The notes beneath the pieces were generated by a model, which had not been told where the DNA came from, did no database searches, and saw nothing but the letters and a program-made list of their open reading frames with translations. From assembly GCA_000002435.2 (NCBI GenBank), contig CM018792.1: a stretch of DNA of 64,000 nucleotides. The stretch is one strand, 5' to 3'. The DNA comes from Giardia intestinalis (Eukaryota). Shown here in pieces: positions 10,188-45,069 of the stretch. Both the position numbers and the translations under genes were made by a program. Within the stretch, counting starts at the first letter, position 1. Each line of letters starts with the position of its first letter.

Positions 10188-13100
10188 TTAGTGTCCAGTA
10201 TCTGTTTTCGTCTGATCCACGAAAATAAACTTCTTTATAATAAGAACTTGCTCTCCGTTGATCTCCTTGAATCCATCCTCCTTGGTCTGGGTCCTGACGA
10301 TGTTTGTGCTAACAATAGCGACCTTCTTCTTGGACGGATCGGGGAGCGCGCTGTCTTTGATCTCGGGCACAAGGGAGTCGGCATAGGCCGAGGTGTACCC
10401 ATAAAGACTGACCTCTAAGCCGGTCCCACTAGTGCGCAGCCATTCCAAGACATCGTCCTGCTTAAAGTAGCTCGTCTTAAGATCCATGTAAATAGTTGAG
10501 TCGAGCGCAGGGTTTGGCGAGAGGTCTGAACTAGAGGCTGTCTGAAAGGTATAGCCCATGTCCAGTAACCTTCGGCGAAACTCATTTTCTTGATAAACGG
10601 AGAGGCGTTTTCCCTTCGGACGTCCAGCGTCCGGGTTGACAAACCATGGCATATGAATCACAGCGTGAACCTTCTTGCAGCACTGGGTGGGTACATTGTA
10701 CGCCTTCTTGAAGTAAGCAGCAATGGTCGTTACAGGGCTTTCGTTCTGAACCAAATTTGCAACATCACATGCGAGGCACTCGGCTCCGTGGTGTGAATAC
10801 CCCGAGCCCAGAAGTGAGAGCGATACATCAATGCTAGTGGCTGCCTTACCCGAGTAGTCATAAATCGGAACGGAAAAGACATCCGTCTCACACGTCTCGA
10901 GAAGACCCGACAGAGGGATACGCCCAACCCCGATAAGGTGAGTTAGGGTCTGGTTATAGATATCTGCCTCCAGATCGAAAGGAAACTCGTCATCATCCTC
11001 TAGATCCCTGTCTGCACTCTCATGTGCCCTGCGCACAGCCTCTTCCTTACCAAGAGTCATCGCAAGTCCGTACATGCGCCTCATGCCGGAGAGTCGCAGC
11101 CCAAATTTCTCTAGTGCCCAGACCTGTCTGATAAGCTTGCGATCCCTGGTTTTGCTGGGGGCAGCCGTGGCCGTCACCAAAATCTCTACGAGTATACCAC
11201 TCAGATCGTCATCAATCTGATCCGCTCGTAAGTCCTTCGTCATTGGATGATTTTTGGACATATTGCGAATGGTCTGACATCGAGCAGCCTGGCGTAGAGA
11301 CGTCGGACTGATAGATGTACGAGCTTGTGCAGCAAAGCGAATGTCATAACAAAAGTACTCTGCTATGGAATTCGCCTCGCAGATAAATGGATAGAGCTGA
11401 CGCAGCACCTCGTGAACCTTCTTTTCATAGGTGGTCCGCTCATCATCGTTTCCAAAATCTGCATAAAAGCTTTCATTGATGTCTGTCTGCACGTTATCTA
11501 AGCCAGGCGTAATTCCAAATGCATCGTCCATGGTAACGGAAACATTCTCCTTAGACACAGGATCATCTCCTATAGGTCTCTGTGCAGTGTCCTTCCCAGA
11601 GCTCTGATAATACGTGTATTCACGTAGTGCAAGATCATACGTTATCTCTGGCTCTACGTAGTCGTAATCCTGTTCCAGAGACTGTTTGACTGCAGCCGCA
11701 CGTGCAGGAGGATCGTAGTAACGATAGAAGGATGACTGGGCCGCAGACCCGCACTTGATACGGTCGCCGTGACGGAGCTGGTGAGTAGAACCAGCAGCTA
11801 TCTGCCTTCCATTGATGTAGAGAGCCCCTTTCGCGCTGAGGGGCCTTATAGTGGCTTCAGTGACTTTGGGAAAGATAGGATTAGCGGTTGAGTCAACGAC
11901 TTTGCCTGTCAAGGAAATAATAAAGTGCTCACCAAGCACACCGAGTTTGCTGACAAGGGCTATCCTGCACTGGCACTCTGTCGGCCCACTATCATCTGCA
12001 CCAACGACAACAGTAACAGGACGAGCATCTTTAAGATCATTCTCAGAACATAACGTATAAATTAGCTGGCCATTATCAGAAGCATTTGAGCTCAAATTGG
12101 ATATATACGGAGTGGTAATTTCTGACCCAAAAGCTGCCGCGAGGCCCATCTTTTTGAGCTTATCTTGTAGCTCTTGTCTGTTCTGCTCCGCTCTGGCTAG
12201 CTTCTCCTCTAGAGATTGATTCCCTTCCTTAAGAAGTCTGTCATACTCGGCTATCTTTGCTTCTAATTCTAAGCGCTCAGCATCAGACAGGCCTGGTTCT
12301 ACAGCACCTGCGTCCCCGGCGGGGGCGCCCCCGGCGAGGAGGGCCTCGAGCTCCTTGACGCGGTCCTCGAGCTCGCGGATGTACTTCTCCTGGGCAGACT
12401 CGTTCTTCGTGACGGTGTTCTCGATCTGGTGGGCGCGGTCTGCGTAGCGGAGGGTCGAGAGGCTCTCGTCGTAGTTCGTCGACGCAGGCGAGATCGCGGC
12501 GATCATGCACGTCATCGAGTTGCCCCCGAGCGCGGGCTGGAGGAGGTACGTCAGCTGGGAGTCGCGGTACGGGACGTGCTGGGGCTTCCGGCGGCCCTCC
12601 GCGGTCGTGTTGTACGCGAGCGCCTCGATGACGCGCCCGAGGGTCGTCAGGGACTTGTTGATGCTGATGCCCTCCGTCAGGCGGTCGCCCGTCGCGCCCG
12701 TCTTGCCCTGGCGCTCGGACCCCGCGAGGTCGACGAGGCTCACCCGGGCGCGCTTGACGTGGCGCCCGACCTCCTCGCCCGCGTCGTTCCGGAGGACCGC
12801 CGTCTGGACGACCTCGATCGCGAAGACGGAGTGCGAGCGCGAGCTCGTCGCGTTCATGTTCGTCGCCGCGACCGTCCGGTTCCGGTCCCCGAGCTCGATC
12901 AGGCGCTGGATCGCGTCGTAGTCGGCGACCGCGTGGTGGCTGAGGTTCTGGACGAAGACGCCCGCCGCGGGGTCCTGGCGGATCCGGAGCTCCTGGGCGC
13001 CCGCGGCGGGGACGAGGAGGTCCCGGAGCCGCTCGTTGTAGATCTCGAGGAACGAGACGGAGACCTGCGTCTCGGCGGGCGAGGCGGCGGCGCGGCGGAA

Positions 13101-13475
13101 GAGCTCGCGCCCGACCCGCGGGATGATCCCTGCGTCGGCCTCGCTCGCGGGCGCGCCCATCATCGAGTACGACTTCCCGGAGCCCGTCTGGCCGTACGCG
13201 AAGAGCGTGTAGTTGTAGCCCTCGAACGCGTTGTCGAGGACGCTCGGCCCGATGTCTGCGTAGACCGTGTCCTGGGTCGCGCACGGGCGGCTCGCGTCGT
13301 GGGACCAGTACGCGTGGTCGTAGACGAACGCCGCGTCGGGCTTCTTCGCGTCTGCGTCCCGGAGGACGACCTTCCCCCCGCCCGGCATGTCGACGCAGAG
13401 CCGCGCCGCCTCCCTCTTCTCGCGCGCGTTGAACGGCCGGACGCGCACCGCGACCTTGACCCCTGTCACCGGCAT
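10188..13475 (-). CDS. Kinesin-3 family motor protein (N-terminal motor, FHA-like domain, long tail)
   Basis: 1095 aa. P-loop GQTGSGKS, switch I NATSSRSHSVF, switch II LVDLAGSER, neck coiled coil. FHA-like block VVVGADDSGPTECQCRIALVSKLG...HFIISLTGKV...ALYINGRQIAAGSTHQLRHGDRI. ATG at 13475. First 390 or so codons are extremely GC3-rich. Confidence 0.85.
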   Translation of the reverse strand: MPVTGVKVAVRVRPFNAREKREAARLCVDMPGGGKVVLRDADAKKPDAAFVYDHAYWSHDASRPCATQDTVYADIGPSVLDNAFEGYNYTLFAYGQTGSGKSYSMMGAPASEADAGIIPRVGRELFRRAAASPAETQVSVSFLEIYNERLRDLLVPAAGAQELRIRQDPAAGVFVQNLSHHAVADYDAIQRLIELGDRNRTVAATNMNATSSRSHSVFAIEVVQTAVLRNDAGEEVGRHVKRARVSLVDLAGSERQGKTGATGDRLTEGISINKSLTTLGRVIEALAYNTTAEGRRKPQHVPYRDSQLTYLLQPALGGNSMTCMIAAISPASTNYDESLSTLRYADRAHQIENTVTKNESAQEKYIRELEDRVKELEALLAGGAPAGDAGAVEPGLSDAERLELEAKIAEYDRLLKEGNQSLEEKLARAEQNRQELQDKLKKMGLAAAFGSEITTPYISNLSSNASDNGQLIYTLCSENDLKDARPVTVVVGADDSGPTECQCRIALVSKLGVLGEHFIISLTGKVVDSTANPIFPKVTEATIRPLSAKGALYINGRQIAAGSTHQLRHGDRIKCGSAAQSSFYRYYDPPARAAAVKQSLEQDYDYVEPEITYDLALREYTYYQSSGKDTAQRPIGDDPVSKENVSVTMDDAFGITPGLDNVQTDINESFYADFGNDDERTTYEKKVHEVLRQLYPFICEANSIAEYFCYDIRFAAQARTSISPTSLRQAARCQTIRNMSKNHPMTKDLRADQIDDDLSGILVEILVTATAAPSKTRDRKLIRQVWALEKFGLRLSGMRRMYGLAMTLGKEEAVRRAHESADRDLEDDDEFPFDLEADIYNQTLTHLIGVGRIPLSGLLETCETDVFSVPIYDYSGKAATSIDVSLSLLGSGYSHHGAECLACDVANLVQNESPVTTIAAYFKKAYNVPTQCCKKVHAVIHMPWFVNPDAGRPKGKRLSVYQENEFRRRLLDMGYTFQTASSSDLSPNPALDSTIYMDLKTSYFKQDDVLEWLRTSGTGLEVSLYGYTSAYADSLVPEIKDSALPDPSKKKVAIVSTNIVRTQTKEDGFKEINGEQVLIIKKFIFVDQTKTDTGH

Positions 13476-13607
13476 TTCTTTTTTTACTGGTTCTAGTATA
13501 GGATGGTGTATAGGTCATGTAGGGTAGGGTAGGGTAAACACTTACCTCTAGACTACGATGCTCCATACTAGAGAGCTCGGATCCAAAAAATAGAATTCGA
13601 GCTCTTG
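13476..13607. promoter_or_regulatory. Bidirectional intergenic/promoter region between the divergent kinesin-3 and coiled-coil genes. AT-rich stretches abut both ATGs. Contains an imperfect 12-bp inverted repeat and (TAGGG)3.
   Basis: aaaaaaagaaATG on the minus side and ...gaattcgagctcttgATG on the plus side. GAGCTCGGATCC-aaaaaata-GAATTCGAGCTC at about 13573-13604. tctaga at about 13547. tagggtagggtaggg at about 13520-13534. Confidence 0.5.
13520..13534 (+). repeat. Interstitial telomere-like repeat (TAGGG)x3
   Basis: Exact tagggtagggtaggg. TAGGG is the Giardia telomeric unit. Confidence 0.6.
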
Positions 13608-16205
13608 ATGACAAGCGCGCTTCCCCGAACACCAGACCTAGCGTATCTTTCTGCAGATGCTCCCCGATCTGTTGAACGATTTCCAACTACTCAGGAGCCT
13701 CCCGAAAATCAGGCTATGAGGCAGTCGTCCAGTACACTTGTTGGTGGTCTCAATGCCAACGACTCAATGGCACGCAGCTCGACGAACTACATGGGAGAGT
13801 CTCAGCTGAATACTATTGAAAGTCTTCAGATGGAGGCACAGCGAAAGGACAAGCTTCTAGAGAAGCTCAACATACAGCTCAGAGAACGCGAAGAGCAACA
13901 TGACAGAGACATGGAGGCATTATCTGAAATGCAAGAGCTATTGGACAAGAAAGAAGAGCAAATAAGCGAGCTAGCTCTCGCTGTTAGCCAAAGAATGGAG
14001 GTACAGGCAGATAATGCATTGACAGAGAGTCTTACACTTAATGGCTGGGACATGCTTGATACAAATGATGGAGTGAAGGACCCCACCAATCAGGGCACAC
14101 AGAATCTTGGTGATAGCCTGGATCTGACTGTCAGTACTCCGCACTCTGCCCGCTCGGCAGGGCCACTAGAGGCAGACGCATTAAGGCACTCTATACGCAA
14201 ACTTCAGTTTCAGCTTACTCAACGCGATCGTCTGCACCTAGATACTGAGATTTCTAATCAAACTTATCGTGACGAGATCCAGCATTTAAAGGACGAAAAT
14301 TCCCAATATCAAACGCTGATCACCTCACAGGCCGATGAAATACAGATGCTACGCGAACAGCAGATAGGCGAGACAGAAGAACTAGCAGCAATGGAAGAAG
14401 AAATCTCTGTTCTTCGTACCACTCTAGCAGAGAAGCTGCAGCTCATAGAGTCCTTGACCGCTGAGGCGCAAGTTTCTAAGACGCAGCTCCTAGAAATGAA
14501 GGATGCTACGCTTCTCGTTCAGCATTCCGCAGATGTTGCCACAGCAGAAATAGAGACCGCAACAGAAGAAATCACGACCCTCCGCGTGGAGCTAGAGGCT
14601 GAGCGGCAAAAGGTAATTGATTTACAAGCTGCGCTTGACCACGAAAAGTTTGCATCCAAGCAGAAAACGCATGAATACACTGAGGTACTTACCAATCTTT
14701 CCCACTCTCACGGTGTTGTTAACTCTCTGGAAACGCAAATACAAGACATGGAGACACACGCTAGAATAAAGGACGAAGAGATTGAAGCCCTGCAGCTTAA
14801 GTGTAGGTCGCTTCAGCTGGAATTGGACGATACTCGCGCTCAACTAGAGAAGGCCATGAACAACGTAACAACCTTGGTACCAAACCTGTCTCCAGATGAG
14901 CTTGCAACAATATTGTCTGACAACAATAGGATGCTCAATATGCTCACAGACAATGCATCAGAAACAGAGGCATTGCTGGCTGCCAATGAGAAGCTTCAGG
15001 CTTCAAATGGAGAGCTAAAGAAGATGAATGCAGAACTTGTCGCCAGAATGGAGCATCTTTCAATTATGGATTCTGCAGAAACTTCGGAAGCAGCATCGAA
15101 TCAAGCCGCGCTTCTGGACGCAAAAAACAAAATGATCAATAAGTTAGAGGTAGAGCTGGACTCACTACGTCAGAAGTACCACTTGATGGAAAAATCCCTC
15201 AACGAACAGTTAGAGGCCGTCACTGTGGCCAAGGTGACACTGGATGCAGAGAATTCAAGGCTACGCACAGAGCTACAGAGCGTTGAGCCTCAGACCATGA
15301 GTAGTATGAACAGCGCCACAAGCATTAGCATTGCTGGGGGCCACTCCCCAGGCCGTGCTGGTAGCATATCATCACAGGTTATGGGATTGAACTCAGATAT
15401 TACACGCCTGCAAAATGAACTACGCCGCAAGGATGCTGAGATGGACAATATGAGTACGCAAATAGCAACCATCATGGAGGAAATACTATCGGTCCGCCAG
15501 GCCAACATGTCTCTGGAACAGGACGTGCAAGCCTTATCGCAAGAAGCTGAGTATCACAAAGGTCAGGCGTCCATGTTAGAGAAGACGCTTGCTCAGACAC
15601 GCGAGGAGCTCCGCATAACCTTGGACAAGACTCGCGTGGGAGAACTCATTGAGGCACTGAATGGGAAGACAGCAGAAGTCACTAAATTGATTCGCGTAAT
15701 CGAAGAAAAGAACTCGCAGATAAAGGACATGCAAATAGAGCTTGATGGAAGGGTACTAAGTGGTACGACCGGTAAGGTTATGCAGGCAACAATCAAGAAC
15801 CTTGAAGAAGAAATTCTGCGCCTCAACCAAGAATTGGAGCTTGTTGTTATCTCCAATGAAAGCCTGGAAAGCCGTCTACATAGCATGGGTGGGAGTATTG
15901 GACAGCCCCAGCCTCAGACACTGGCGGCCAAGATGCCTGTCAATTCAACTACAAATTTCCATGAGCGTGAAGACCATCTAGGCAGCGATGCATCCTCCGT
16001 CTCAGCAACCATAAGGATGCGTCAGCTCTCTGAAGAGGTGTTATCTCTCAAGGACACCATCGCTAATCTCACAACCACGCTGAAGCAGAAGGATGCACGC
16101 CTAGAAGAGGTATCGTCCGAGCTTTCAGTCAAGTATGTGGAGCTAGATAACATGAGGGGGCTTATTAAAAAGAAGAACGAACAACTTATGCAGCTGATGA
16201 AGTAA
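13608..16205 (+). CDS. Large coiled-coil protein (about 865 aa)
   Basis: ORF track starts at a TTG (13605). First ATG is at 13608. Heptad-rich, E/K/L/Q-rich throughout. No globular domain recognised. Confidence 0.6.
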   Translation: MTSALPRTPDLAYLSADAPRSVERFPTTQEPPENQAMRQSSSTLVGGLNANDSMARSSTNYMGESQLNTIESLQMEAQRKDKLLEKLNIQLREREEQHDRDMEALSEMQELLDKKEEQISELALAVSQRMEVQADNALTESLTLNGWDMLDTNDGVKDPTNQGTQNLGDSLDLTVSTPHSARSAGPLEADALRHSIRKLQFQLTQRDRLHLDTEISNQTYRDEIQHLKDENSQYQTLITSQADEIQMLREQQIGETEELAAMEEEISVLRTTLAEKLQLIESLTAEAQVSKTQLLEMKDATLLVQHSADVATAEIETATEEITTLRVELEAERQKVIDLQAALDHEKFASKQKTHEYTEVLTNLSHSHGVVNSLETQIQDMETHARIKDEEIEALQLKCRSLQLELDDTRAQLEKAMNNVTTLVPNLSPDELATILSDNNRMLNMLTDNASETEALLAANEKLQASNGELKKMNAELVARMEHLSIMDSAETSEAASNQAALLDAKNKMINKLEVELDSLRQKYHLMEKSLNEQLEAVTVAKVTLDAENSRLRTELQSVEPQTMSSMNSATSISIAGGHSPGRAGSISSQVMGLNSDITRLQNELRRKDAEMDNMSTQIATIMEEILSVRQANMSLEQDVQALSQEAEYHKGQASMLEKTLAQTREELRITLDKTRVGELIEALNGKTAEVTKLIRVIEEKNSQIKDMQIELDGRVLSGTTGKVMQATIKNLEEEILRLNQELELVVISNESLESRLHSMGGSIGQPQPQTLAAKMPVNSTTNFHEREDHLGSDASSVSATIRMRQLSEEVLSLKDTIANLTTTLKQKDARLEEVSSELSVKYVELDNMRGLIKKKNEQLMQLMK

Positions 16206-39131: not shown

Positions 39132-39947
39132 CTATATAAGTCGCAGAAAAATATATGTTAGTAGCAGACCATAATCGACTCCTATGATGATATAAGTTAA
39201 TTTCTTGCACCATCGCATCTTCCATTGCCGCTTTCGGGCGTGCTTAAGTATATCTCTTCCTTCCTCAGCGTATCCAACTGCGGTATACACATTTGCATCT
39301 ATTCTATCTAGCACCGTTCCTTGCTCATAGATGAGCTCAGACATCTGGGTGATAATATTTGCTATCTCTGCGATCCCTGTGGTTATGTACGTTATTTCTT
39401 GCTGACGCATTTTGATCTCCTCTGAACTCAACTCCGCCCGTTGATCTGCAAGTGCAGAAATGTTCCTGGCTTGAGATGTTAGGTGAGCACCTTCGTAGGT
39501 CTCGGGAAGAGCCAAGGCTGCCGCATACCGTTGGTGTATGTCACGAAGATTCTGGGTTTCCCTCCGTAGACTCGCAAAGAGGGACCCCACAACTCCTCGC
39601 CGGAGCTCCTCCTCCGCAGGGTTATTCAAAGACTGCGCATTCAGTCCAACAATTCCTGCTTGAAGTGTTTCAATTTGGTCTGTTGCACTCTTGCCCAGTG
39701 TCTTGATCTCGCCTGCGAGAATATCGTTAAAGATGGACCTCTGTCTCTGCCTCTCTTTGTCTTCTATCTTAGTCAGGGTCTGCTGAAGCGTTAGGATATC
39801 AGCACGCAGTTTATTGGCCATCTGCATCCAGACGGGGTCCGCAGGTTCTACAAAAACGTTGTCGTCCTCTAGAGACCCCAAGCGCTCTTTGTGTACCTGC
39901 GACCGTGCGGTCTGAAACTCCGCAGTTAGATCTATGGTCACTGTCAT
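39132..39947 (-). CDS. Syntaxin-like Qa-SNARE
   Basis: 271 aa. SNARE motif with a zero-layer Gln, IYEQGTVLDRIDANVYTAVGYAEEG (cf. syntaxin [20 protein letters not shown]). C-terminal TM LTYIIIGVDYGLLLTYIFL. Helical N-terminal region. Confidence 0.7.
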   Translation of the reverse strand: MTVTIDLTAEFQTARSQVHKERLGSLEDDNVFVEPADPVWMQMANKLRADILTLQQTLTKIEDKERQRQRSIFNDILAGEIKTLGKSATDQIETLQAGIVGLNAQSLNNPAEEELRRGVVGSLFASLRRETQNLRDIHQRYAAALALPETYEGAHLTSQARNISALADQRAELSSEEIKMRQQEITYITTGIAEIANIITQMSELIYEQGTVLDRIDANVYTAVGYAEEGRDILKHARKRQWKMRWCKKLTYIIIGVDYGLLLTYIFLRLI

Positions 39948-39979
39948 CTAATTTTTAATAATTCTCAGAGGACTACGTG

Positions 39980-42628: not shown

Positions 42629-44893
42629 TCACTCATAGAAATCCTTACCAAAATCAATGTTATTTTTATTGCTTGCGATAAGTTGTAATTGACCTCTATC
42701 CTCGTCCTGTTCTCTGGTGCTTTTATCAATAGTTTTCTTTGCAGCCCCGTAGCTGCGAGCCATAACCTTTCGTATTGTGGCCTTCTTGATTGGCTCCAGA
42801 GCTCTTTCCCGAGCGCGGGCTATCTTATCTGCATGAATCACTGCCAATTCCTCTTGACGCTTGCGGTGTCTCTCCTTGCGCCTTTCTTTCTCACGTGCTT
42901 TTTCAAATAAAATGTGGTACTTCTCTGGCAGCTTTCTAACGAGTGCGGAGGAATGCTGCAAAAGCCTTTCTATCTTACTCAGCATGTTCAGTGGTGTGAC
43001 AGAGAGCGCGTCGCTGTCTGACGTCTTTGTACAGTGGATGTATGCCTGTCTGATGGCGTCCTCAAGAAGGGACACCAGATGTGTATTGTGGTCAAGGGTC
43101 GCTTCTACATACGAAGCTTCACCCTCCACCTCCTCTGCATCTGTCCGCTGGGCCAGCGTTTGAAGGTTTCCAGTTTGCATTAATAATTGGCGCATCTCTT
43201 CCTCCCTTTCTCTATATTCATTAATACACCTATCTATGAAAGCCTCCTGGCTCGTCTCTACTGTCTGCAAATGCTCCAGCAAGAAGAAGTTGGTATTCTC
43301 AATCGATCTGAGCGACTCGACAAACTCGTTGGTGTCCAGAAAAGGTATCTTATTCTCCTCATTCACGAAAAGACCTACGTTTGTACTGTAGTAATCACTG
43401 AGGCCTGGCTCTGACACCGGGATGTGGGAGTACTCCTCTATGCTGATCTGCGTGGCGCGAACAAGATGACGCATCGTGAGACCAAGCTGCTTGAGGTTAT
43501 TTTTCATAAGCACTGATCCGTCTGTGGACACAGCACCAGCGCCTATCTGCGACTCTTGAATAACTGGCCCTGACTCCGCAAACACATTGGGTGCCATACG
43601 CATGATGTACTGCTTGTCCTCCTGTGAAGATATGGTCATGTAGTTGCAGTAGTTTGTGCAGGGCTCTGGGCACCGGCCACTGGGTATTGTATAAAATTCC
43701 AGAATTTCGCTCAGCTTCTTCAGTACAATGGTTCCAGGCATCTCCTCTAGGTTCTTACTCGGATCTATTCTGTCGTTTGTATTAATTGTACTGGCGAGCA
43801 CCTCCGTACTCTCTGTAAGGATCTTGTCATAGTAGGTCCTGCCACTCTGAGCTCCAGCATCATTCATAGTAATTAGATTGTACGGTGTTATGGCGCCAGT
43901 CTGCACAATTGTTGAGTTCAGCGGAAAGCAGAAGCACGTGAGGCAGAGTCCGTGACAGTGTCCATACTTCTCCAAACAGAAGGCTATGGCCATACGTTGA
44001 ACAGTATGTCGCTCTCGTCGCCCTACGAGTAGCTCTCTATCTTTAATGGAAATGAGTTGGTCCAAGAAAAGCCTATACCTATGTAGCTGACGAATGGACA
44101 GCTCGTGCTTGGTTATCTCTGACTTCAAAGCGAGTATTTGGCTACTGGTGTTACGAATCATTTCTTGTCTCTGTGTTCGGGCCTTAACAGCCTTCTCAGA
44201 CTCCGATATTGTCTTCACAGTCCCCAGATCGCTGTGGCGAATGAACTTATCGAACTTCGAGACCTCCACATCGAGCTTTTTCACTTCTGCCTTGAGATTG
44301 TCTTCCTTTGCACGAATTTGGTTATTGATGTTATCTATTTCGCTCTTTTTGGTTTGCAAAGACAGCTCCGCAAGGAAGATGTCTCTTTGCTTGCTCATGT
44401 ACTCGTCCAGCTTTGGCCGAGGGCCCGGGTCCCGGACCAAGTTCTCAAGAAATTCACGGTCCTTTTTCGTCAGATGTGCGTATTTCTCTGAATAGAGAGG
44501 GGAGTAAGCGTCCAAACGATTGAGGACTTCCTTCGGAATCTGGAGCTCTTCCTCTCGTGCCACACGCTGGTTACGGGTCTTTGCAATGGGTGGAAGAGAC
44601 GTTGTGCCCTTGCCTGTCTGTGCTTTTGATCCTCTACCGCTGATGTTGCTGGTTGCTGTGGATGAATGTCCTGAAGAGGAGGCTGATCCCTTGCTTCTAG
44701 ACTCTGTCAGGCCAAGATTCCTGTTCCTGGAGGCGTATTCGCTAGTTCGCATATGGATGGGAATTTTCTTCAGTAACGCGGCCTGCTCGGCTTTCTCACG
44801 TTGATCGTCCGCTCTTACTTTATAGATGTCAAAGTCGCTATTCAGTCGAAACGGATTGGTCTCCATTTTATCGTAGTACTCATCTTCGAGCAT
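42629..44893 (-). CDS. Hypothetical coiled-coil protein (754 aa), possibly flagellum-associated
   Basis: ATG at 44893. Mixed globular and coiled-coil segments. No confident family assignment. Confidence 0.5.
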   Translation of the reverse strand: MLEDEYYDKMETNPFRLNSDFDIYKVRADDQREKAEQAALLKKIPIHMRTSEYASRNRNLGLTESRSKGSASSSGHSSTATSNISGRGSKAQTGKGTTSLPPIAKTRNQRVAREEELQIPKEVLNRLDAYSPLYSEKYAHLTKKDREFLENLVRDPGPRPKLDEYMSKQRDIFLAELSLQTKKSEIDNINNQIRAKEDNLKAEVKKLDVEVSKFDKFIRHSDLGTVKTISESEKAVKARTQRQEMIRNTSSQILALKSEITKHELSIRQLHRYRLFLDQLISIKDRELLVGRRERHTVQRMAIAFCLEKYGHCHGLCLTCFCFPLNSTIVQTGAITPYNLITMNDAGAQSGRTYYDKILTESTEVLASTINTNDRIDPSKNLEEMPGTIVLKKLSEILEFYTIPSGRCPEPCTNYCNYMTISSQEDKQYIMRMAPNVFAESGPVIQESQIGAGAVSTDGSVLMKNNLKQLGLTMRHLVRATQISIEEYSHIPVSEPGLSDYYSTNVGLFVNEENKIPFLDTNEFVESLRSIENTNFFLLEHLQTVETSQEAFIDRCINEYREREEEMRQLLMQTGNLQTLAQRTDAEEVEGEASYVEATLDHNTHLVSLLEDAIRQAYIHCTKTSDSDALSVTPLNMLSKIERLLQHSSALVRKLPEKYHILFEKAREKERRKERHRKRQEELAVIHADKIARARERALEPIKKATIRKVMARSYGAAKKTIDKSTREQDEDRGQLQLIASNKNNIDFGKDFYE

Positions 44894-45069
44894 GAGTCCA
44901 AATCTGATTTTTTGTCAACTAACTTGTTGTCATGAAAAGGTGAGTAGTTTATCTTTCTAGCGAGATAAATGCATCATTACGTCATCAACGGCTACAGAAC
45001 GCTGTTGCCCTGATTGACAAGGAAAATTTCTGGTAAATTCACTTTCTGCCGGGAAAAAATCGGCTGAAT

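Follow-up and report, generated by a model that had tools for sequence, protein, structure and literature searches.

The window analysed here, that is, the whole stretch of 64,000 nucleotides from contig CM018792.1 (GCA_000002435.2), derives from Giardia intestinalis WB (assemblage A1), and the flanking proteins of the locus are identical to WB C6 entries by exact protein look-up. Its architecture is one of intronless long ORFs separated by very short intergenic regions. One of these regions lies between two divergent genes and holds the whole of a run of restriction sites that looks much like a cloning polylinker (Table 1). The plus-strand gene, GL50803_14963, encodes a hypothetical coiled-coil protein, and its exact product was found in 86 blocks of public assemblies; a literature search for this gene found no paper mentioning it. 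Elsewhere in the window, exact look-up identified the 1871-aa ORF as clathrin heavy chain XP_001709749.1 and the ORF following GL50803_14963 as XP_001709755.1. An Rfam scan of the whole window returned no family above threshold.

The minus-strand gene has homologues which bear the name Kinesin-3 in assemblages B and E and in G. muris, and its orthologue in isolate DH has a Pfam Kinesin match. It is probably GL50803_102101, a name that occurs in papers as a label. The exact 1095-aa product has no record in the protein collection, in which all neighbouring products are recorded, and other assemblies were reached through the adjacent gene and through homologues. One SRA contig (L001) also carries a SNP relative to the window inside the repeat block of the kinesin gene, which is described below. 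Both observations would fit a mixing of paralogues or alleles where the repeat has been assembled. Immediately before the kinesin ATG stands an A-rich element which is conserved in every lineage whose sequence extends there and is likely to be the initiator of the kinesin-3 gene. An intron reading of the minus-strand GTAAGT...CAG was considered and rejected, as this string is located before the kinesin ATG and is both unconserved and unsupported.

Two further sequence features of the intergenic region vary between isolates or lineages. A 12-bp unit, GTATAGGATGGT (13496-13514), is repeated in tandem about 1.6 times in WB vs about 2.6 times in DH (L009 2879-2909), and is a small copy-number polymorphism within the promoter region. 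Three tandem copies of TAGGG, the Giardia telomere repeat unit, at 13520-13534 occur in assemblage A (WB and DH) and are absent at the homologous position in assemblage B and the other lineages. A telomere-related role of (TAGGG)3 was rejected, since the array is found in assemblage A only.

Table 1. Features of the kinesin-3 / GL50803_14963 intergenic region and the six-lineage alignment rows (window coordinates).
Feature	Position	Strand	Remarks
Kinesin-3 gene	10188..13475	-	1095 aa; divergent neighbour of GL50803_14963; from ORF coordinates and homologues
GC-rich block	12325..13484	-	about 70% GC, GC3 0.97-1.0; 1.15-kb repeat common to a paralogous kinesin-3 gene
Intergenic region	13476..13607	.	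132 bp, between divergent kinesin-3 (-) and GL50803_14963 (+); holds the whole site run
A-rich element directly 5' of kinesin ATG	13476..13487	-	reads GTAAAAAAAGAA-ATG; A7 at 13479-13485
XbaI, TCTAGA	13547-13552	+	sequence reading and site count
String TACTAGAG	13566-13573	+	4 occurrences in the window
5' arm, AGAGCTCGGATCC	13572..13584	+	specific to the assemblage A lineage
GAGCTCGGATCC	13573-13584	+	SacI (13573-13578) and BamHI (13579-13584)
Spacer, AAAAAATA	13585-13592	+	between the two site pairs
Invariant core, AAAAAATAGAATTC	13585..13598	+	A6 run and TAGAATTC; 14 consecutive invariant columns in six lineages; flanks vary
GAATTCGAGCTC	13593-13604	+	EcoRI (13593-13598) and SacI (13599-13604)
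3' arm, GAATTCGAGCTCT	13593..13605	+	EcoRI within invariant core; SacI unconserved
GL50803_14963, coiled-coil protein gene	13608..16205	+	865 aa; exact match XP_001709753.1 / KAE8303822.1 (hypothetical coiled-coil protein)
Alignment row, A1 / A2			TACTAGAGAGCTCGGATCCAAAAAATAGAATTCGAGCTCTTGATG
Alignment row, E			TACTAGAGAGTTTGGATCCAAAAAATAGAATTCGAGCTCTTAATG
Alignment row, B			TACTGAAGAGTTCAGATCCAAAAAATAGAATTCACGCTCCTGATG
Alignment row, X			TACTGCTGGGATCAGCGCCAAAAAAATAGAATTCGGGTTTTTGATG
Alignment row, Y			TACTGCTTAGATCAGACCAAAAAAATAGAATTCGGGTTTTTGATG

A preliminary description of this DNA had drawn attention to two adjacent pairs of restriction sites, 8 nt apart and forming an imperfect inverted repeat. 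Reading positions 13000-14200 confirmed these sites base for base, together with the complementarity of the 12-nt arms at 10 of 12 positions, which becomes 11 of 13 with an extra pair between 13572 and 13605. Downstream of GAATTCGAGCTC comes TTG, and then the plus-strand ATG. GAATTCGAGCTC makes up the first 12 nt of the pUC19 polylinker and the 8-mer TACTAGAG is the BioBrick scar, and the dense spacing of 6-cutter sites is a further likeness to the pUC19 / M13mp polylinker. The order of sites differs from that polylinker, however, and the identity to pUC19 is over after 12 nt, where the window continues TTGATG.

How unusual such a run is depends on how restriction sites are distributed in this DNA. 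Almost any palindromic hexamer is a site of some enzyme. The window holds 934 palindromic hexamers and 21 abutting pairs of them (including NcoI-NdeI, SacI-XhoI and SphI-BglII), so two adjacent restriction sites are commonplace here. There are 49 copies of GAGCTC alone, roughly a threefold excess over expectation, and an excess of hexamers of this kind inflates the chance of polylinker-like clusters. More generally, GAGCTC (SacI), CTGCAG (PstI), AAGCTT (HindIII) and CAGCTG (PvuII) are each found 36-49 times in the window vs about 16 expected. The coiled-coil ORFs, of which there are many, are the likely source of this excess through their codon pairs for Glu-Leu (GAG-CTC), Leu-Gln, Lys-Leu and Gln-Leu.

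Chance was assessed by simulating the window 1500 times under a first-order Markov model. In 6.7% of the simulations two abutting pairs fell within 30 nt, and in 0.33% two abutting pairs had a common hexamer, so that the earlier estimate of roughly 10^-3 per window was of the right order of magnitude. Extrapolated to a 12-Mb genome, 0.33% per window amounts to about 0.6 expected cases, and the arrangement is therefore unremarkable genome-wide. The XbaI site and the TACTAGAG string are chance strings.

The run is identical in isolate DH (assemblage A2; GCA_000498715.1), which was separately isolated and sequenced, and the same run is present in three independent SRA assemblies (SRR2642205, SRR3177751 and SRR13990249). 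Diverged homologues of it occur in P15 (assemblage E), in assemblage B, assigned from a protein cluster which includes GS and BAH15c1 entries, and in two further lineages, X and Y, at 82-83% protein identity. The length of the A-run varies slightly: it is A5 in the SRR13990249 assembly (L003 105-110) vs A6 (13585-13590) elsewhere in assemblage A, and A7 in lineages X and Y. This is either a homopolymer polymorphism or sequencing error.

Alignment of the six lineages (A1, A2, E, B, X and Y) separates the invariant core AAAAAATAGAATTC from the sequence on either side of it. The ATG context and a short TACT (13566-13569) are also invariant, and the latter may be an upstream promoter element. At the positions orthologous to the 5' arm, assemblage E has GAGTTTGGATCC and assemblage B has GAGTTCAGATCC, with GGGATCAGCGCC and TAGATCAGACC in the two further lineages, X and Y. 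The first SacI site is found in assemblage A only, E having GAGTTT in its place, and the XbaI site is likewise restricted to A. BamHI and the second SacI site are shared by A and E, the position of the latter reading ACGCTC in B and GGGTTT in X and Y. Assemblage E thus retains BamHI, EcoRI and the second SacI, and B, X and Y retain EcoRI alone, a site which lies within the invariant core and hence occurs in every lineage. Versions of a site differ between lineages by one substitution (GAGTTC, GAGTTT and GAGCTC; AGATCC and GGATCC), which argues that the polylinker look was built by a few point changes on the A branch.

Work by Yee in 2000 and Elmendorf in 2001 is said to have described AT-rich initiator core promoters in Giardia, lying in short and often bidirectional intergenic regions. 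[quoted passage not shown] They often have a second upstream AT-rich element, and are frequently bidirectional (PMC1885649; PMC12209930). By TSS-seq, the sequence at the start site has an AT-rich consensus, of which AATTCAAAAAA and ATTTCAAAAAA are two of the variants (PMC3792122). Most 5' UTRs are shorter than 20 nt, although long leaders occur in some genes and a gene can have more than one start site (PMC1885649; PMC3792122).

The core described here resembles these initiators (Teodorovic 2007, PMC1885649; Tolba 2013, PMC3792122) in being an A/T-rich element of 8-14 nt placed 17 nt from the ATG, in its likeness to the start-site variants AATTCAAAAAA and ATTTCAAAAAA, and in the presence of similar A-runs before most genes of the window. 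At the sequence level it has both an ATG-proximal AT-rich element and conservation above that of the surrounding intergenic DNA. It differs in that it runs into the conserved TAGAATTC, which is outside the generic AT-rich consensus. An A-run of at least 5 lies within 40 nt upstream of the first ATG in 12 of the 21 long ORFs of the window, compared with 3% of random 40-mers (P about 1e-13). In several of these genes the A-run is 12-17 nt before the ATG; for GL50803_14963 the distance is 17 nt, measured from the end of the A6-TA run at 13585-13592 in its 132-bp intergenic region. Neither GL50803_14963 nor GL50803_102101 is among the genes given in the TSS-seq supplements searched.

The 10-mer pattern AAAAAWYAGA occurs three times in the window (from 13585, 39947 and 44903) against 0.78 expected, in each case just upstream of an ATG and in sense orientation. 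The other two occurrences, at 39947-39956 and 44903-44912 (minus strand), stand before the ORFs at 39132-39947 and 42629-44893. This placement hints that the promoter motif may be narrower than ʻAT-rich’. A promoter motif of cytoskeleton genes, CAAAAA(A/T)(T/C)AGA(G/T)TC(C/T)GAA, has been described (Holberton and Marshall, 1995, as quoted in PMC3792122). Written as CAAAAAWYAGAKTCYGAA, it is matched at 15 of 18 positions by CAAAAAATAGAATTCGAG at 13584-13601, the first 11 nt perfectly, and the gene downstream encodes a long coiled-coil protein. A match of 15/18 is not significant alone, with 0.71 expected per window and at least 2 matches in 17 of 100 shuffles.

Taken together, we consider it very probable that the run is native assemblage A DNA in which AAAAAATAGAATTC is a selected, AT-rich initiator-type core, and that the flanking sites and the palindrome are point substitutions under no detectable selection. 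Judged by its conservation and by its resemblance to a known class, the core at 13585-13598 is probably an ordinary, already known kind of Giardia promoter element. By analogy with that class, RNA polymerase II would start transcription of GL50803_14963 in or beside the A-run, which would leave a leader of 18-23 nt. The SacI, BamHI, second SacI and XbaI sites would have arisen from a handful of point substitutions in the A lineage, some of them shared with E.

The inverted repeat deserves separate consideration, as it had been put forward as a possible natural palindromic promoter element. The part of that proposal which holds is that the sequence is natural and lies in a short divergent promoter region. 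Conservation, however, does not follow the palindrome: B, X and Y have lost the arms, covariation is lacking, and only AAAAAATAGAATTC is invariant. When equally good inverted repeats were counted (two 12-nt arms with no more than 2 mismatches around a loop of 3-12), the window gave 18 registers vs 27 +/- 7 in simulated sequence, so that the palindrome as such is not beyond chance. Folding predicts a hairpin in assemblage A, with an energy of -16.9 kcal/mol as RNA (z -4.5) and -7.9 kcal/mol as DNA (z -3.2), and an RNA hairpin in assemblage E of -12.9 kcal/mol (z -3.9); folding of the B, X and Y sequences gave nothing above shuffles (z about 0). Predicted stability thus exceeds the composition-matched expectation in the A/E clade only.

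Across the six-lineage alignment, 0 of 13 pairs were altered on both sides, and paired cells amounted to 73%, no better than shuffles. In RNA, G-U pairing survives the two E-specific C-to-T changes of the 5' arm. C-to-T is the commonest substitution type. On these sequences, there is no evidence of selection on pairing. The locus is like conserved promoter hairpins, cruciforms and palindromic operators in having a 13-bp imperfect inverted repeat around an A-rich loop at a promoter, and is unlike them in that the pairing is unconserved outside the A/E clade, is without covariation and has a chance-level frequency.

A young, lineage-specific functional palindrome might still be proposed, acting in A and E as a cruciform, a single-stranded hairpin or the site of a dimeric factor that would modulate divergent transcription. 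The strength of the predicted hairpin in A and its retention in E would favour it, and a tendency of the promoter to local melting or structure could matter, as Giardia TBP has been reported to prefer single-stranded DNA (PMC12209930). We nevertheless regard such a palindrome as unlikely, given that B, X and Y lack the arms though they keep the gene and the core, that compensatory changes are absent, and that equally good inverted repeats occur in the window at or below the chance rate. Moreover, A and E are close relatives, and arms common to them can reflect mere shared ancestry. It is quite improbable that the A/E repeat of 13 bp is a young regulatory innovation in which a cruciform or single-strand hairpin would alter melting of the AT-rich start or access of TBP; if true, divergent transcription of kinesin-3 and GL50803_14963 would be tuned differently from that in assemblage B.

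A role for the repeat in RNA was also weighed. Were transcription to start upstream of 13572, the leader of GL50803_14963 would carry a hairpin ending 3 nt before the AUG, which could repress or otherwise regulate translation of the coiled-coil protein. The predicted RNA fold is stable, and long leaders and multiple start sites are known for some Giardia genes (PMC3792122; PMC1885649). Giardia 5' UTRs, however, are mostly under 20 nt, with starts within the ATG-proximal AT-rich element (PMC1885649; PMC3792122), and the structure is absent in B, X and Y and shows no covariation. If transcription starts in the A-run, the 5' arm would lie upstream of the start and be untranscribed, and so the hairpin would be absent from the mRNA. 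We therefore hold a leader hairpin to be very improbable. The polylinker-like palindrome does not constitute a separate biological feature.

The site run lies close to a GC-rich block in the kinesin gene, which the preliminary description had called recoded-looking and had given as a reason to look at the run. This block has sharp limits, one 9 nt upstream of the kinesin ATG and the other near codon 382, with GC3 at 0.97-1.0 inside it vs about 0.5 in the remaining kinesin gene. DH and assemblage B have the same high-GC block, and the G. muris orthologue shows it less strongly (GC3 0.87). A second kinesin-3 gene has a 5' part (L012 1001-2151) that is 99.6-99.7% identical to the block; in DH this gene lies about 27 kb away on the same contig, the two copies differing at 5 of 1151 positions. 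Far from being a recoded insert, the block is a natural repeat shared with this paralogue. Some 90 nt separate its boundary from the restriction-site run, and block and run are therefore unrelated.

The block has an evolutionary history of its own. Outside it, the tails of the two kinesin-3 paralogues have 26% of amino acids in common. Between assemblages A and B, synonymous codon differences amount to 7.8% inside the block and 49.6% outside it, and the kinesin-3 paralogues of G. muris are not homogenised. The simplest reading of these comparisons is that gene conversion, possibly GC-biased and ongoing, has made the motor-domain segments evolve in concert; no paper on kinesin-3 gene conversion in Giardia was found in the literature searched. 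Recent transfer between assemblages, as a source of the low synonymous divergence in the block, was rejected because amino-acid divergence is not reduced in proportion.

Such near-identity also affects how the locus has been assembled. The P15 contig and most short-read contigs end at or just inside the kinesin 5' end, and L001 extends about 1.17 kb into the block. In assemblage B, JXTI01000008.1 (GCA_001543975.1; L010 1-1500) places the upstream flank of the paralogue (RtcB; L012 1-1000) before the body of this kinesin, unlike the assemblage B short-read contigs (L004 and L005), which have the coiled-coil gene upstream of kinesin-3. JXTI01000008.1 was probably misjoined during assembly, across the motor-domain repeat; the alternative is a genuine rearrangement. 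The near-identical repeat thus accounts for both the recurrent assembly breaks and the apparent chimeric join at the locus.

A cloning or engineering scar had been offered as the other explanation of the run, and a vector screen and a comparison of the same locus in other isolates had been proposed as checks. The screen, run as blastn of 13440-13660 against 72,556 PLSDB plasmids, returned nothing over the run, all matches being chance ones (E 2-8) outside it, and an exact 32-mer scan of JGI metagenome contigs gave 0 matches. The comparison gave, as described above, identity in DH and the SRA assemblies and graded homologues in other assemblages. Neither extended vector identity nor absence from independent isolates nor heterologous or recoded flanks was found, both flanks of the run being native genes; unlike synthetic DNA, the run occurs in wild, unmanipulated isolates and has diverged homologues elsewhere in Giardia. 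That a synthetic polylinker came to lie beside a recoded kinesin 5' region, through manipulation or misassembly, has next to no probability: the identity of GAATTCGAGCTC to the pUC polylinker start and of TACTAGAG to the BioBrick scar, the adjoining 70%-GC block and the rarity of the co-occurrence per window (0.33%) may suggest it, but the pUC identity stops at 12 nt with no plasmid match over the run, the GC-rich block is a motor-domain copy of the paralogue found also in DH, assemblage B and, more weakly, G. muris, DH and three SRA runs carry the same sequence with natural indel variants, assemblages E and B and lineages X and Y have graded homologues, and a single engineered line behind all assemblies is excluded by their sequence divergence. 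With identical sequence in independent isolates and no plasmid match, engineering or contamination is refuted as the origin of the run.

The value of this locus is mainly that of a control case, in which familiar cloning sites (four or five of them), an 8-mer like the BioBrick scar and a ʻrecoded-looking’ block are all native. For contamination and engineering screens, it follows that clusters of restriction hexamers alone are weak evidence. Comparison with sister lineages splits a selected 14-nt initiator-type core from accidental decoration. Biologically, the near-identical, extreme-GC3 motor block of the kinesin-3 paralogues is more interesting than the restriction-site run. In AAAAAWYAGAATTC-like motifs the TAGAATTC extension might mark a regulon, for example of cytoskeletal or coiled-coil genes. 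The promoter elements of Giardia are poorly defined as a set, to which the invariant core adds a small and testable member.
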